DNA from: Candidatus Saccharimonadota bacterium
GTDB taxonomy: Bacteria > Pseudomonadota > Gammaproteobacteria > Enterobacterales > Enterobacteriaceae
Length of the DNA stretch: 32,000 bases
Assembly (NCBI RefSeq): GCF_964059045.1
Contig: NZ_OZ060402.1
Location: 240,001-272,000, forward strand
Reading direction: 5' to 3'
Within the stretch, counting starts at the first letter, position 1. Every line of letters starts with the position of its first letter. Positions 1,869 to 25,776 of the stretch are shown here, one piece after another. Below the pieces are notes generated by a model. That model made no database searches and was not told the origin of the DNA. It saw only the letters and a list, made by a program, of their open reading frames with translations. Made by a program: the position numbers and the translations under genes.

Positions 1869-1929
1869 TAAATATATACAATATTTTTAAAAAATTTTTT
1901 CAATTTTTTAAAAATATTGTATATATTTA
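1869..1929. repeat. Perfect palindrome: 28-bp arms (1869-1896 / 1902-1929) around a 5-nt loop ttttc
   Basis: I paired the bases by hand and all 28 positions are complementary. Pairing fails at 1868/1930. The only G:C pair is 1879/1919. It lies in the 362-bp frr-bamA spacer. Confidence 0.9.
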
Positions 1930-9296: not shown

Positions 9297-10997
9297 TTAT
9301 AGTATTTCTTTAATAAAATTATTTATATCGTTTATATTAATCATATTTTTTATAGTACTATTCCTGTAATGATATTCAATATTGTTGTTTTTTAAATTTG
9401 TCTCGCTAATAATTAGTTGATGAGGAATCCCGATTAAATCCATTTGAGAAAAAATTATTCCTATTTGTTCGTTTTTATCATTAAATAAAACATCAATTTT
9501 ATTATTAATTAATGTTTGATATAATGATTCTGAAATTTTTTGAACTATTTTTGATTTATATAAATTAATAGGTATAATTGCAATTTGAAATGGAGCTATT
9601 AAATTTGGCCATATAATTCCTTTATTATCATTGTTTTGTTCGATAATTGCAGCAACAATTCTAGTTATTCCTATTCCATAGCATCCCATACTTAAATTTT
9701 TATTTTCACCTCTTTTATTTTGTATATTTGCTTTAAAAATAGAAGAATATTTATTTTCTAATTGAAATATATGTCCAATTTCTATACATTGTTGTATTTT
9801 TAATATTTCTTTTTTTTCATTAAAAATATTTTTATCAAAATTGGTATCAATATTTTTGCTTATATCTAGAATCTGAGATTCTTTAAAAAAATTTTTCCAA
9901 ATTTCATTAATATTAATCAAATGTTCATTTATTTTAATCCAATTTATATTTTTTAATGAATTTATAACAGATAAATCAGTAATAAGGAAAATATTATTTA
10001 ACGTTTTTTTTAGATCTTGTTTTTGATTTTTAATAAATTCATTTTGTTCATCCTTTGAAGCATATTCAAGTGGGTTAATAATTATATCAATTTTCTCTAA
10101 TTGTTTAAAATTTATTATGTGATTATTTTTTATGGCTACAGCAATAAATTTATCTTTTAGTTGATTTTCTTTTGCTTTTAATAAAATAATTTTTATTATT
10201 TTATTCAAATATAATTGATTTATTGTACTGATAATATTTTTTTGATTTTTTTGTATAATATTCTTTAAAAGAGATTGTGTAATTGATGGGTTGATATTAA
10301 TATTTTCTGTATAATTAGATTCTTGAGAATACATAATCGTATCTTCTCCATTTTTTGAAAAAGCTTGAAATTCATGTGAAATTTCTCCTCCCATTATGTT
10401 TGAATCAGCTTTGACTGATCTATATTGTAATTTTAATTTATCAAAAATTTTTATATAAGTCTCGTGCATTATATGATACATTTTTGTTAATGATAATTTA
10501 TTTAAATGAAAAGAATATGCATCTTTCATAATAAATTCACGTGATCTAATGACTCCTGAACGTGGTCGAATTTCATCTCTAAATTTATTTTGTATTTGAT
10601 ATAATAATATAGGTAGTTGTTTATAAGAATGTATTTCATTTTTTATTAAATAAGTAACTATTTCTTCATGTGTAGGAGCAAGAACAAATTGATGATTTTT
10701 ACGATCGCATAATTTAAATAATTCATTCCCATATGTTGTCCATCTTTTACTTTCATGCCATAAGTTAGCAGGTTGAATAGCAGGCATATATATTTCTATT
10801 CCTCCTATTTTTTGTATTTCTGTATGTATAATTTTTATAATTTTATTTAATACTTTTATACCTGTTGGTAACCAAATGTATATACCGGAAGATAATTGTC
10901 TTATCAAACCAGCTCTTAACATTAATGTATGACTATCATTTTCTATATTTATTGGTTTTTCTTTCATAGTAAAAAGTAAATATTTGGTTGTTTTCAT
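9297..10997 (-). CDS. proS: Prolyl-tRNA synthetase
   Basis: 566-aa ORF. Class II core motifs are conserved (FRDEIRPRSGVIRSREFIMKDAYSF, IEIGHIFQL..KYS, GCYGIGITRIVAA). The central INS region is very divergent (see findings). Confidence 0.95.
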   Translation of the reverse strand: MKTTKYLLFTMKEKPINIENDSHTLMLRAGLIRQLSSGIYIWLPTGIKVLNKIIKIIHTEIQKIGGIEIYMPAIQPANLWHESKRWTTYGNELFKLCDRKNHQFVLAPTHEEIVTYLIKNEIHSYKQLPILLYQIQNKFRDEIRPRSGVIRSREFIMKDAYSFHLNKLSLTKMYHIMHETYIKIFDKLKLQYRSVKADSNIMGGEISHEFQAFSKNGEDTIMYSQESNYTENININPSITQSLLKNIIQKNQKNIISTINQLYLNKIIKIILLKAKENQLKDKFIAVAIKNNHIINFKQLEKIDIIINPLEYASKDEQNEFIKNQKQDLKKTLNNIFLITDLSVINSLKNINWIKINEHLININEIWKNFFKESQILDISKNIDTNFDKNIFNEKKEILKIQQCIEIGHIFQLENKYSSIFKANIQNKRGENKNLSMGCYGIGITRIVAAIIEQNNDNKGIIWPNLIAPFQIAIIPINLYKSKIVQKISESLYQTLINNKIDVLFNDKNEQIGIIFSQMDLIGIPHQLIISETNLKNNNIEYHYRNSTIKNMININDINNFIKEIL

Positions 10998-18636: not shown

Positions 18637-19377
18637 TTATTTATAATTGTTTTTTATTGTTCTAATCAAAATAAAATTGTCATATGATTTCTTTTCTAAT
18701 TTTTTATTTTTTATTCTAGACAAATGCAGAAAAACATTTATTTTTTTTTCTAAACCTATTGTGCTTGGTAAAGTTATTTTTTTGTATTTTATTTTATTTA
18801 TTAAATTATAGTATTCGATTATATTTTTTTCATTTGGAAATAATTTTTTTGAAAATTCTAAATTTTTTTTTGTATATTCGTGAGCAGGACATATAATTGT
18901 TTTATTAGGTAAAATTGAAAATTTTTTTAGGGATAAAAACATCATCATATAATTTTTTTTGTATATATTACCACATCCTCCTGAAAATAATGTATCACCA
19001 CAAAACAAATATGGATTTATATAATAAGATAAATGTCCGATTGTATGTCCAGGAGTGTATATTACATGGAATATTTTATCTAATAAATAAATTTTTTCCC
19101 CTCCAAAAAGAACATTATTTATTCCAAATTTTATAGATTCTATTGGTCCATATACTTTTATTTTTGGAAAACAAAAAATTAATTCATTAATTCCAGCAAC
19201 ATGATCAATATGATGATGAGTGATTAATATTGCTTTTGGTTTCAAATTTAATTGAATAATTTTTTTAAATACTGGTAAAAAATCTCCAGGGTCTATAATT
19301 ACACATGATTGATCTGATTGATTTAATATCCATACATAATTATCATTGAGAATAGAAACTATATTTAAATTCATCAT
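18637..19377 (-). CDS. gloB: Hydroxyacylglutathione hydrolase (glyoxalase II)
   Basis: 246-aa ORF (E. coli 251 aa). It has the metallo-beta-lactamase motif ILITHHHIDHVAG, then TPGHTIGH and CGDTLFSGGCG. Confidence 0.93.
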   Translation of the reverse strand: MMNLNIVSILNDNYVWILNQSDQSCVIIDPGDFLPVFKKIIQLNLKPKAILITHHHIDHVAGINELIFCFPKIKVYGPIESIKFGINNVLFGGEKIYLLDKIFHVIYTPGHTIGHLSYYINPYLFCGDTLFSGGCGNIYKKNYMMMFLSLKKFSILPNKTIICPAHEYTKKNLEFSKKLFPNEKNIIEYYNLINKIKYKKITLPSTIGLEKKINVFLHLSRIKNKKLEKKSYDNFILIRTIKNNYK

Positions 19378-19480
19378 CGAATTAATATTTTTATTAATAT
19401 ATCACATATTATATATTATTTGTTAAAAATAATATATAATATGTGATATATTAATAAAAATATTAATTCGATGATGAATT
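19368..19480. repeat. Perfect palindrome: 54-bp arms (19368-19421 / 19427-19480) around a 5-nt loop gttaa
   Basis: I paired the bases by hand: 54 of 54 positions are complementary (6 G:C pairs). Pairing fails at 19367/19481. It spans the entire 85-bp rnhA-gloB spacer, the first 10 nt of gloB, and the last 5 codons plus stop of rnhA. Confidence 0.95.
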
Positions 19481-19948
19481 ATTAATATTATCTATATATC
19501 CAAAATCTATCAATGATGGATTTTTTGCTGACATTTTTGCTAATAAATCACATTTCTCATTTTCAATATATCCTGAATGACTATTAATCCATATCCATTG
19601 AATTTTATGAATTTTCATTATTGTGTTTAATTTAGTCCATAAATCTAAATTTTTTATTAATTTGTTGTTATTGTTTCTCCAATTTTTTTTTTTCCAATTT
19701 TTTAACCAAATGGATACACCTTTTTGAACATATTGACTATCAGTAATAATTTTTATTTGACACATTTCCTTTATTTTTTCTATTCCTATAATAACACTCA
19801 TTAACTCCATACGATTATTGGTAGTCCAATAAAATCCATTTTGAAATATTTTTTCATGTTTTTTATACCGCATTAATATTCCATATCCACCAGGTCCTGG
19901 ATTGCCTAAACATGATCCATCTGTAAAAATTGTAATTGATTTTAACAT
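19463..19948 (-). CDS. rnhA: Ribonuclease HI
   Basis: 161-aa ORF. ITIFTDGSCLGNPGPGGYG matches E. coli VEIFTDGSCLGNPGPGGYG, followed by TTNNRMEL and DSQYV. It is divergent from dnaQ as in E. coli. Confidence 0.95.
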   Translation of the reverse strand: MLKSITIFTDGSCLGNPGPGGYGILMRYKKHEKIFQNGFYWTTNNRMELMSVIIGIEKIKEMCQIKIITDSQYVQKGVSIWLKNWKKKNWRNNNNKLIKNLDLWTKLNTIMKIHKIQWIWINSHSGYIENEKCDLLAKMSAKNPSLIDFGYIDNINNSSSN

Positions 19949-20028: not shown

Positions 20029-20766
20029 ATGAATAAATTACAAAAAAGACAAATTGTATTAGATACTGAAACTACAGGAATGAATATTACAGGTGTTCAT
20101 TATCTTGGTCATAAAATTATTGAAATAGGTGCAGTGGAAATTATTAATAGAAAATTAACTGGTAATAATTTTCATGTATATATTCAACCTAATCGAATTA
20201 TAGAACAGTCAGCATTTTTGATTCATGGAATTTCTAATGATTTTTTATTAAATAAACCAAAATTTATTAATATTGTAAATAATTTTTTAAATTATATTAA
20301 AGGAACTGAATTAATTTTACATAATGCAAATTTTGATATTAGTTTTATTGATTATGAATTAAAATTATTAAATATGAATTTTCCTTTAATAAAAAATATT
20401 TGTAAGATTACTGATAGTTTATCTATTGCTAGAAAAATATTTCCAGGAAAAAAAAATAATTTAGATGCATTGTGTTTACGTTATAATATTCCAGTTAATA
20501 GAAATACCCATAGTGCTATTTTAGATGCAAAAATTTTAGCAAAAATATATTTATTAATGACTTTGAATCAAGAACAAATAAATTTTTCTAATTTGATTAA
20601 AAATGATAATTTAATAGATTATAAAATTAAACATAATCCATGTTTATCAAAATTATTAAAAAATGCAAATCCAATAGAAATAAATAATCATGAAATATAT
20701 TTAAAAAATATGATAAAAAAATCTGGAAAATGTATTTGGAAAGAAAAATTATCAATTAAACATTGA
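20029..20766 (+). CDS. dnaQ: DNA polymerase III epsilon subunit (3'-5' proofreading exonuclease)
   Basis: MNKLQKRQIVLDTETTGMN aligns with the E. coli DnaQ N-terminus (..TRQIVLDTETTGMN). ExoII (HNANFDISF) and ExoIII (HSAILDAKILAKIY) motifs are present. The track ORF starts at 19936, but that extension overlaps rnhA and has no homologue counterpart. Confidence 0.93.
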   Translation: MNKLQKRQIVLDTETTGMNITGVHYLGHKIIEIGAVEIINRKLTGNNFHVYIQPNRIIEQSAFLIHGISNDFLLNKPKFINIVNNFLNYIKGTELILHNANFDISFIDYELKLLNMNFPLIKNICKITDSLSIARKIFPGKKNNLDALCLRYNIPVNRNTHSAILDAKILAKIYLLMTLNQEQINFSNLIKNDNLIDYKIKHNPCLSKLLKNANPIEINNHEIYLKNMIKKSGKCIWKEKLSIKH

Positions 20767-21609: not shown

Positions 21610-22224
21610 ATGATTGATATTAAAAATTCAGAATTGGAAGAAAAAAAAATTTTTGATGAAAAAAATGATAGTGGATTTTTTGATCAAAATAATCAAATCA
21701 TTGATAATAATGATTTGAATAATCAAATCATTGATAATAATGATTTGAATAATCAAATCATTGATAATAATGATTTGAATAATGATCTTATATTAATTAA
21801 AGAAAAATTTTTAAATTTAAAAAAATTATCAGAAAAAGAGATAAATAATACTCTTGTTAGAGTACAAAAAAATAATGAATTAAATTATAAATTTGCTTTA
21901 GAAAAAATTATCATTGCTTTGTTACCAACTATTGATAGTTTAGAACGTGCTTTGAATTTGTCTAATGATGCTGATTTGAATATGAAAAAATTCAATTGTG
22001 ATATCAATTTAATTTTAGAAAAATTTTTGAATGTATTGATTGAATTTAATGTAACCATTATTAATGAAAAAAATGTTCCATTTAATCCAGAATTCCATCA
22101 AGCAATGTCTGTAATTAACTCAACAAAAAATAAAGATAATTATGTCATGGATATTATTCAAAATGGATATTTATTACATCAACGGTTGTTAAGACCAGCT
22201 ATGGTCATTGTTTCTAAAAACTAA
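21610..22224 (+). CDS. grpE: Nucleotide exchange factor GrpE, with an N-terminal repeat expansion
   Basis: 204-aa ORF. YKFALEKIIIALLPTIDSLERAL and the C-terminal GY.L..R.LRPAMV.VSK match E. coli GrpE ([23 protein letters not shown] ... RPAMVTVAK). Confidence 0.93.
   Translation: MIDIKNSELEEKKIFDEKNDSGFFDQNNQIIDNNDLNNQIIDNNDLNNQIIDNNDLNNDLILIKEKFLNLKKLSEKEINNTLVRVQKNNELNYKFALEKIIIALLPTIDSLERALNLSNDADLNMKKFNCDINLILEKFLNVLIEFNVTIINEKNVPFNPEFHQAMSVINSTKNKDNYVMDIIQNGYLLHQRLLRPAMVIVSKN
21691..21780 (+). repeat. Perfect 3 x 30 bp tandem repeat inside grpE (aatcaaatcattgataataatgatttgaat)
   Basis: Segments 21691-21720, 21721-21750 and 21751-21780 are identical. The repeat is in frame and encodes NQIIDNNDLN three times. 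Degenerate partial copies flank it (tgat....aat at 21681-21690, aatgat at 21781-21786). Confidence 0.97.
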
Positions 22225-22561: not shown

Positions 22562-22701
22562 TATTGATTAAAAATGATATTTTGATTATATATAATTTAT
22601 ATAATAAATTCATTAATTAATATTTATTTAGTGAATTTATTATATTTATGTTATAAATATTATCATATATATTTTGAAGTCTAATATTAAAATATTATTT
22701 T

Positions 22702-24238: not shown

Positions 24239-25099
24239 TTATGTAATATTATTTATTTTAACCCATATTGTTAAAAATATTTTTTTTTGTAATTTTTTTT
24301 CTATTTCTTTTCTAGATAAAGTACTTAAAATTTTTATTTTTTGTCCTTTTTTTCCAATGATAATTTTTTTTTGATTATTATTATTGACTATCAATAAAAC
24401 TTTTATACTATAATTTCCATTTTTTTGAACATCAATAGATTCTATTTTAATTTTTATAACATATGGAATTTCTTCTTGAAAATTTTTTATAATTTTTTCT
24501 CTTATTATTTCAGATATTGTAAATTTAAGTGAGTTTTGAGTGTTAATGTTTGAAGAATATTCATGTTCTGAAAGAGGTAGTATTGTTTTTATTTCTTGAA
24601 TTAAATAATTGATATTACTTTTATTTTTTGCTGAAATAGGAATGATTTGATTGCAATTATTAATTTTCCCTTTAATGAATGCAATGAAAGGTAACAATAA
24701 TTTTTTGTTTTTAATCAAATCAATTTTATTAATGACTATAATGATAGGTTTGTTAAATTTACTTATATTTTGAAGGATTTTTTGATCTTCAATTGTAAAA
24801 TTTTTTGGATTAAGTATGAATAAAATTATATCAGCTATTTTCATCGTATTTTTTGTTTCTTTATTTAAATCACAAGTATTAAAATATTTATTGTTTGTAT
24901 TAATTCCGGGGGTGTCAAAAATAATATATTGATAATTTTTTTTTGTTTTTATTCCTGTAGTTTTTGTTTGAGTTGTGTTTTTTTTATGCGATACAATTGA
25001 AATTGTATCTCCAATTATTTGATTGAGCAATGTAGACTTTCCTACATTACTTTTTCCTAATAAAATAATTTTTCCACAAAAATTATTATTGATATTCAT
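24239..25099 (-). CDS. era: GTPase Era
   Basis: 286-aa ORF with G motifs [20 protein letters not shown] and SA.. It has a KH-domain signature ([11 protein letters not shown]...EIPY; [10 protein letters not shown]). Its start ATG overlaps the rnc stop (ATGA). It is shorter than E. coli Era at the C-terminus. Confidence 0.92.
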
Positions 25100-25776
25100 T
25101 CTAATCCTAGTTTTACTAGTGCATGTTGAGCTGCATTTTGTTCAGCTTTACGACGGCTAGCTCCAATTCCAATAAAATGTTCATTTAAACCAGTAATAAT
25201 GCAATGAATGGTGAATAATTGATTATGAGCTTCTCCATATACTTGCATAACTAAATATGATGGTAATGGTAATTTTCTTGCTTGTAAATATTCTTGTAGT
25301 CTTGTTTTAGGATCTTTTTGCTTATCTCCTGGGCTAATTTTTTTTAATCTTTTTTTATACCATTGTAAAATTAATAATTCTATTGTTGTTATATTACTAT
25401 CTAAAAAAATTCCACCTATAATTGCTTCAATAGTATTAGCCAGGATAGATTCTCTACATCCTCCTCCACTTTTTAATTCCCCTTGTCCTAATTGCAAATA
25501 TTCACCTAAATCAAATTCATATGCTAATTCAGCTAAAGTATGACCTCTGACTAAAGTTGCTCTCATTCGACTCATATCGCCTTCATTAACATATGGAAAA
25601 TCATGGTATAGTGCATTAGCAATAACAAAACTTAGAATTGAATCTCCTAAAAATTCAAGACGTTCATTATGTTTGCTATTTGCACTTCTATGTGTTAATG
25701 CTTGTTTTAAAATTTCTTTTTGTATGAAAGTATAACCTAGTACTTTTTGTAGTCTATCTATTGTGATATGATCCAT
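25096..25776 (-). CDS. rnc: Ribonuclease III
   Basis: 226-aa ORF, the same length as E. coli RNase III and very similar along its whole length. Shared blocks include [34 protein letters not shown]...[20 protein letters not shown] and [19 protein letters not shown], with a dsRBD ending in SRRKAEQ.AA..AL.KL.LE. Confidence 0.97.

Follow-up and report, generated by a model that had tools for sequence, protein, structure and literature searches.

A perfect 113-bp palindrome across the rnhA–gloB junction of Buchnera from Eriosoma grossulariae, its probable origin by template switching and its predicted effect on gloB

We describe here a perfect palindrome of 113 bp that lies across the junction of rnhA, encoding RNase HI, and gloB, encoding a hydroxyacylglutathione hydrolase, in a stretch of DNA of 32,000 nucleotides (contig NZ_OZ060402.1 of assembly GCF_964059045.1, positions 240,001 to 272,000), which is referred to throughout as the window. 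Both RnhA and ProS, as encoded in the window, show 100% identity to entries of Buchnera aphidicola (Eriosoma grossulariae) (CAL4321333.1, WP_367676772.1), and the chromosome of this Buchnera is 606,948 bp long. On balance, we think it probable that the palindrome is a real feature, specific to the E. grossulariae Buchnera lineage, which arose through one template-switch event in replication or repair synthesis. It is a striking case of a known kind of replication error and not a new type of element.

Structure and origin of the rnhA–gloB palindrome

The two arms of the palindrome (Table 1) are exact reverse complements of each other, pairing at 54 of 54 positions with 6 G:C pairs; the same arms around a gttaa centre had been read by hand in a first-pass annotation of this DNA, and our re-derivation reproduced them in full. 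The outer ends are sharp, pairing being possible at 1 of the next 7 flanking positions. The palindrome covers the whole of the 85-bp spacer between rnhA and gloB and reaches into both genes. On the minus strand, positions 19377–19369 are ATG ATG AAT, the start of gloB, and the tenth coding nucleotide, a T, reaches 19368, the downstream arm terminating in ...TTAATTCG ATG ATG AAT T. At the other end, positions 19480–19463 of the same strand read AAT TCA TCA TCG AAT TAA, that is, codons 157–161 of rnhA (NSSSN) and the stop. The earlier placement of the gloB start in the left arm, and of the last five rnhA codons and stop in the right arm, is therefore correct. The gloB start codon together with the 44 nt upstream of it (19421–19378) is enclosed in the hairpin, and the RNase HI tail encoded by the palindrome falls outside the catalytic domain (Table 1).

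The A+T content of the region is 89%, and the G+C content of the stem is 11%. Perfect stems with loops of ≤200 nt were searched for in 30 simulations of the window under a first-order Markov model, and the longest measured 12–18 bp compared with the 54 bp seen here. Moreover, the longest perfect stem of hairpin type (loop ≤12 nt) in 1.56 Mb of other loci, 1.45 Mb of which came from 80 non-Buchnera gammaproteobacteria as control DNA, was 20 bp. A chance origin of the palindrome is excluded. Folding of the 113 nt, which had been suggested in the first-pass annotation, gave −69 kcal/mol for the RNA (z = −17) and −49 kcal/mol for the single-stranded DNA hairpin (z = −18).

Table 1. Features of the window, and rnhA–gloB spacers of the five other Buchnera compared (locus labels L001–L004 and L087–L089)
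Feature	Position or locus	Strand	Size	Description
gloB-proximal arm	19368–19421		54 bp	Putative source arm; minus strand holds the gloB leader and first 10 coding nt
Hairpin loop	19422–19426		5 nt	Asymmetric centre, GTTAA on the plus strand and TTAAC on the minus strand
rnhA-proximal arm	19427–19480		54 bp	Putative copy, on the basis of a tail absent in all relatives
rnhA	19463–19948	−	161 aa	RNase HI, upstream of gloB; Pfam RNase_H at aa 3–141
gloB	18637–19377	−	246 aa	Hydroxyacylglutathione hydrolase; intact, Pfam-confirmed
rnc	25096–25776	−		Ribonuclease_3 and dsrm domains
Second perfect palindrome	1869–1929		61 bp	28-bp arms, 5-nt loop TTTTC, almost pure A/T
Tandem repeat in grpE	21688–21783		30 bp × 3.2	100% identical, in-frame; grpE at 21610–22224 (+)
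Imperfect hairpin	22599–22645		47 bp	22-bp stem, 2 mismatches, 3-nt loop; divergent rnfH–smpB spacer
rnhA–gloB spacer, Buchnera of E. lanigerum	L001/L003		85 bp	
rnhA–gloB spacer, Buchnera of E. harunire	L002/L004		78 bp	
rnhA–gloB spacer, Buchnera of Logan sample SRR23797614	L089		61 bp	
rnhA–gloB spacer, Buchnera of Pemphigus obesinymphae	L088		50 bp	
rnhA–gloB spacer, Buchnera of Tetraneura ulmi	L087		10 bp	

Alignment of the junction from related Buchnera had also been proposed earlier, and none of the rnhA–gloB spacers of the five relatives in Table 1 was found to hold a palindrome or a notable hairpin. These relatives are distant, the nearest available showing 59% identity in ProS and 75% in RnhA, and their intergenic DNA is unalignable with that of the window; BLAST of both palindrome-bearing spacers of the window against the sister loci gave nothing but AT-rich noise on both strands. 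Scans of metagenomes for the rnhA 3' end and for the palindrome arm returned 0 matches. The first-pass annotation had regarded the junction as one left by a gene deletion, since yafS stands between the two genes in E. coli. The gene order in E. coli K-12 is indeed gloB-yafS-rnhA-dnaQ; however, no Buchnera examined has yafS, and its loss is therefore old and unrelated to the palindrome. A tie between the palindrome and the loss of yafS was accordingly rejected.

The direction of copying can be read from the coding ends of the two arms. The gloB start ATGATGAATT, 10 coding nt of which lie within the arm, matches the gloB starts of relatives at 7–8 of 10 positions when aligned with ATGATAAAAT (SRR23797614), ATGATTTATT (E. 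harunire) and ATGTTATATT (E. lanigerum), the comparison of the arm with relatives being limited to these 10 nt, and in all gloB genes compared the conserved DNY motif stands at an equal distance from the start codon. At the end of rnhA, the RNase HI tail NSSSN* has no counterpart among 25 other RNase HI sequences, and the G/C positions of the arm are accounted for by the two ATG codons of gloB, which give rise to the unusual TCA TCA TCG in rnhA. Because the gloB start is homologous to those of relatives and NSSSN* is unique, we infer that the gloB-side arm is the source and that the rnhA-side arm is the copy, which would have overwritten the native 3' end of rnhA. This copy took the place of the spacer's upstream half and of the C-terminal RNase HI tail, which is unconstrained, and the protein now ends in NSSSN*. 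An inverted duplication over the end of rnhA is what the first-pass annotation had envisaged, and it gains support both from the homologous gloB start and from the unmatched tail.

The length of RNase HI is another matter. It had been stated correctly that the protein has 161 aa compared with 155 aa in E. coli, and the extra residues had been ascribed to the palindrome. RNase HI of Buchnera varies from 152 to 163 aa, with 2–13 unconserved residues beyond a conserved GY, and the sister protein of E. lanigerum Buchnera has 160 aa without a palindrome. Since the tails vary in this manner, nothing about the palindrome can be read from a length of 161 aa, and the palindrome was rejected as the cause of a longer RNase HI. 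Among these genes, rnhA of T. ulmi Buchnera (L087, 10001–10464) is 464 bp long, which is not divisible by three, and its translation differs from the database protein, which points to either a frameshift or a gene that depends on slippage.

The native, homologous gloB start held by the arm also argues against a mobile palindromic element (REP/BIME-, RPE- or MITE-like) having inserted itself at this junction, an explanation that we find scarcely credible. Palindromic elements that invade gene ends do exist, those of Rickettsia being a known example. However, apart from AT-rich 13-mers, the window has no second copy, the sequence is unlike that of the second perfect palindrome, and the arm has no exact match in the metagenome collection. 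A mobile family with multiple dispersed copies, having been met neither in the window nor in the metagenome collection, is close to refuted. Mobile elements are not known from Buchnera genomes.

A reverse-complement copy only 5 nt away from its source, with sharp ends and absent from relatives, is the signature of a template switch. The adjacent arms, pairing in full across their 5-nt loop, have the form of a snap-back inverted duplication, and one arm appears ancestral with outgroups lacking the repeat, as far as distant relatives and 10 comparable coding nt can tell. In the event that we propose, the nascent strand, just past the gloB start region, would have folded back after 5 nt; the gloB leader with the first 10 coding nt of gloB, 54 nt in all, would have served as template for the laying down of their reverse complement; and the strand would have rejoined the normal template within the 3' end of rnhA. 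As an alternative to self snap-back, the nascent strand may have crossed to the other strand, copied it and returned. The outermost 4 nt of the arms, AATT, are self-complementary, and this AATT at the outer edge is a possible microhomology for the return switch. The GC skew is positive over 22 of the 32 kb of the window and the plus strand is probably the leading strand, in which case synthesis would pass the source first and the copy downstream of it, as snap-back requires. It has been reported that template switching makes perfect hairpins in one step and re-homogenises existing stems (PMC8794818). No selected function would be required for such a palindrome, which may persist because RecA-dependent recombination has been lost in Buchnera and a palindrome-cleaving activity is probably missing. 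Buchnera is documented to be without RecA and nearly all recombination proteins (PMC1193525), and no explicit statement on SbcCD was found in the literature on Buchnera recombination genes.

There are 0 differences in the 108 paired nt at rnhA–gloB and 0 in 56 more at the second palindrome; a Poisson estimate places the age on the order of ≤1% substitutions per site. Neutral sites of the E. grossulariae Buchnera lineage are saturated relative to its nearest sampled relatives. Given arms without differences in a lineage with saturated neutral sites, the palindromes are either very young or kept identical by repeated template switching between the arms. The choice between very recent and actively maintained had already been drawn in the first-pass annotation, and it is in agreement with five relatives that are without the palindrome and with the lack of change in either arm.

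Predicted effect on gloB expression

It had been anticipated that the hairpin would bury the initiation region of gloB in an rnhA–gloB co-transcript, and the computed energies bear this out. The cost of opening this region (−20 to +12), as modelled in a 351-nt co-transcript, is 36.4 kcal/mol, compared with 2.9–9.0 kcal/mol for 22 other genes of the window and 3.2–7.7 kcal/mol for gloB of the five relatives. When the nucleotides from −15 to +15 around the rnhA stop are held single-stranded, which mimics a terminating ribosome, the cost drops to 6.4 kcal/mol. This is because the gloB start is the exact pairing partner of the last rnhA codons, which, together with the stop, pair with gloB positions −8 to +10. 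According to this model, a ribosome terminating on rnhA should open the gloB start and gloB translation should depend on rnhA translation, unless transcription begins at a promoter within the downstream arm, in which case the upstream arm would be missing from the mRNA and the coupling avoided. Both the pairing geometry and the release by the ribosome that define structure-mediated translational coupling are present in these computations.

With regard to other roles of the RNA, a perfect double-stranded RNA of at least ~20 bp and a gene for RNase III, which are what an RNase III hairpin calls for, are both found in the window (rnc, Table 1), and the 54-bp perfect stem is a plausible substrate of this enzyme; smpB is also encoded within the window. 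A role as a 3' end of the terminator kind, which had been suggested earlier, is not supported. Intrinsic terminators have a G+C-rich stem followed by a U-tract; the stem here is AT-rich and followed, in gene orientation, by UAAAUAUAGUUUC, with no U-tract 3' of it, and the terminator scan found 0 terminator-like sites. No promoter or terminator signals in the scan stood above shuffled expectation. At the gathering score of Rfam 15, no family was found at the palindrome, the window having 16S rRNA and three tRNAs only. At its other end, gloB has its stop (18637) 6 nt from the 3' end of tRNA-Ala (18630), which belongs to a convergent 16S–tRNA-Ile–tRNA-Ala unit; as the gloB stop adjoins this unit, rRNA read-through would run antisense through gloB into the palindrome.

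These predictions raise the question of whether selection now maintains a hairpin of the same origin as an RNA element, be it for rnhA–gloB coupling, as an RNase III site or as a stabiliser of the 3' end of the rnhA message, a role of this kind having been put forward for the Blochmannia palindromes. We consider this unlikely. It would agree with the pairing of the rnhA stop and last codons to the gloB start and the fall in opening cost with a ribosome, with an intact gloB, with the presence of rnc in the window, and with both palindromes being perfect and few decayed ones occurring in the window; it has also been argued for Blochmannia that such palindromes decay if unselected (PMC3017870). 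However, the five relatives have neither the hairpin nor a closed gloB start, and the genes work without it. Covariation evidence is impossible with one sequence only, and there is neither a terminator signature nor an Rfam family. Moreover, 54 perfect pairs go far beyond the needs of coupling or processing, and one-step copying fits them better.

Other repeats in the window and the weight of the evidence

The second perfect palindrome of the window lies in the non-coding frr–bamA spacer, which is 362 bp long here compared with 1307 bp in E. lanigerum and 1711 bp in E. harunire Buchnera. It is followed on the plus strand by TTTATTTAT, its RNA folds at −25 kcal/mol (z = −8.5), and it probably stems from the same process as the palindrome at rnhA–gloB. 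For the imperfect hairpin, ~0.2 hairpins of like score would be expected by chance; it was not present in the rnfH–smpB spacers of the sister genomes and may be an older, decaying palindrome. The tandem repeat in grpE encodes NNQIIDNNDL three times, N-terminal to the Pfam GrpE domain, and each repeat unit holds a 9-bp inverted repeat of its own. In ~21.7 kb of each of two sisters, no hairpin with a score of ≥14 and no perfect tandem array were found. A 36-bp loopless perfect palindrome, TTTAATACAAATATTTTA followed directly by TAAAATATTTGTATTAAA, is present in P. obesinymphae Buchnera (L088, 9021–9056), between gpt and dnaQ and adjoining a tRNA-like sequence, so that smaller perfect palindromes do occur in other Buchnera.

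Since inverted and direct misalignment products share a mechanism, the palindromes and the grpE repeat suggest an active misalignment process in this lineage; a common technical cause is less likely. A more far-reaching version, which we offer tentatively and regard as possible if somewhat doubtful, is that strand misalignment is unusually active (e.g., because a single-strand exonuclease or a hairpin nuclease has been lost or weakened), that it both makes the palindromes and repeats and keeps them perfect, amounting to ~40 palindromes in the whole genome if the window is representative, and that it rewrites gene ends and gave gloB an obligatory ribosome-dependent switch in one step.

Three repeats in 32 kb that are "too perfect" can also be the mark of an artefact. 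The palindrome would then be a fold-back chimera from end repair or PCR of extremely AT-rich DNA, or from graph resolution or manual finishing, and the true rnhA tail and upstream spacer would be missing from the assembly. From the neighbouring accessions (OZ0603xx) of E. lanigerum and T. ulmi, we infer that the genome came through the pipeline of an aphid co-obligate symbiosis project. The likely source project used sonicated DNA, 12 PCR cycles, 2×251-nt HiSeq reads and SPAdes with k ≤127, without whole-genome amplification (bioRxiv 10.1101/2022.08.28.505559). With 89% A+T, the region could easily lose coverage over 12 PCR cycles, and the authors of the likely project mention low-complexity sequencing artefacts near the replication start. 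However, both the 251-nt reads and k = 127 exceed 113 bp, multiple-displacement amplification was not involved, and an artefact would require reads or k-mers over both outer junctions. In addition, intact open reading frames are contiguous on both sides, the spacer has the same 85 bp as that of the sister, and no structures of this kind occur in ~42 kb of the E. lanigerum and T. ulmi genomes, which belong to the same submission batch. Palindromes of such size have been validated by reads in Blochmannia, a related symbiont of ants (PMC3017870). Taken together, we hold an assembly or library artefact to be quite improbable.

Several points nevertheless weigh against a real palindrome made by one template switch, which is the explanation that we favour. 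Firstly, a single assembly stands behind the palindrome, and its physical reality is supported by indirect arguments. Secondly, neither the ancestral sequence nor the switch points nor the age can be reconstructed from relatives so distant. Thirdly, birth followed by decay through point mutation predicts more decayed than perfect palindromes, whereas the window has two that are perfect and a single one that is slightly imperfect (22599–22645); with so few decayed ones, homogenisation, rapid deletion or a recent burst must be assumed. Lastly, gloB is intact, and a block of 36 kcal/mol on it would seem a heavy cost if the gene matters.

Two neighbouring genes deserve mention. The first is proS (9297–10997, minus strand). 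ProS of three Eriosoma Buchnera (566–576 aa) is without a match to PF04073, in contrast to other Buchnera ProS, which keep the editing domain, and the called ProS has only 397 aa in T. ulmi (L087, 18625–19818) and 431 aa in P. obesinymphae Buchnera (L088, 18786–20081). It seems, from these protein sequences, that the proline-tRNA editing domain is degenerate or lost in the Buchnera group of Eriosoma, T. ulmi and P. obesinymphae. The second is dnaQ, the mechanical open reading frame of which starts with TTG at 19936, overlapping rnhA; the true start is likely the ATG at 20029 (MNKLQKRQIVLDTETTG).

Comparison with known systems

Translational coupling through mRNA structure is well known from rpmI–rplT and from the long-range pairing between the coat and replicase genes of phage MS2. 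As in these systems, the start of the downstream gene is paired here with the end of the upstream reading frame and is opened, in our computations, by the ribosome. In contrast to their conserved and modest stems, the stem at rnhA–gloB is brand-new, perfect and 54 bp long, and its coupling is a prediction.

In E. coli, long palindromes are cleaved by SbcCD and are unstable (e.g., Darmon et al. 2010, PMC3315005). The palindrome described here resembles the substrates of SbcCD in being perfect and interrupted and in being able to form a hairpin on the lagging-strand template. By analogy with E. coli, its persistence would imply that a cleaving activity is missing or ineffective in this Buchnera.

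A likeness exists also to template-switch mutations of the quasipalindrome type (the Ripley model and the E. coli hotspots studied by the Lovett laboratory; Monttinen and Loytynoja 2022, PMC8794818), with which the palindrome shares the adjacent reverse-complement copy, the short asymmetric loop and the sharp ends. In most documented template switches, a short imperfect repeat is corrected or lengthened by anything from a few nucleotides to a few tens of them, whereas 54 nt appear to have been copied here, and, unlike in documented cases, no pre-existing quasipalindrome is detectable in the relatives of E. grossulariae Buchnera. If the palindrome is real, it is an unusually clean natural case in which one template switch had three effects: it built a 54-bp hairpin, recoded a C-terminus and rewired how the following gene is translated, all in a genome regarded as structurally static and free of recombination. 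The annotation of the rnhA stop and the gloB start, as well as the assembly, merit scrutiny at this site.

Among symbiont genomes, those of Blochmannia offer a close parallel. They carry 6–20 palindromes each, of 62–136 bp and nearly all at least partly intergenic (Williams and Wernegreen 2010, PMC3017870), which impeded assembly and Sanger sequencing and were confirmed by Illumina reads (PMC3017870). Our literature searches found no earlier description of long perfect palindromes in Buchnera. The palindrome at rnhA–gloB, with its 113 bp, gap of 5 and 0 mismatches, falls within the range of the Blochmannia type (≥30 bp, gap ≤20 bp, ≤3 mismatches, partly intergenic), and in both cases the host genome is that of an AT-rich, RecA-less and reduced insect endosymbiont of the Enterobacterales. 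It differs in belonging to another symbiont lineage, in overlapping two coding sequences (the stop of one and the start of the other), in being fully perfect, and in that the direction of copying can be inferred. The long intergenic palindromes of Blochmannia are thereby extended to Buchnera, in a case that bears on whether selection or a mutational mechanism keeps such palindromes.

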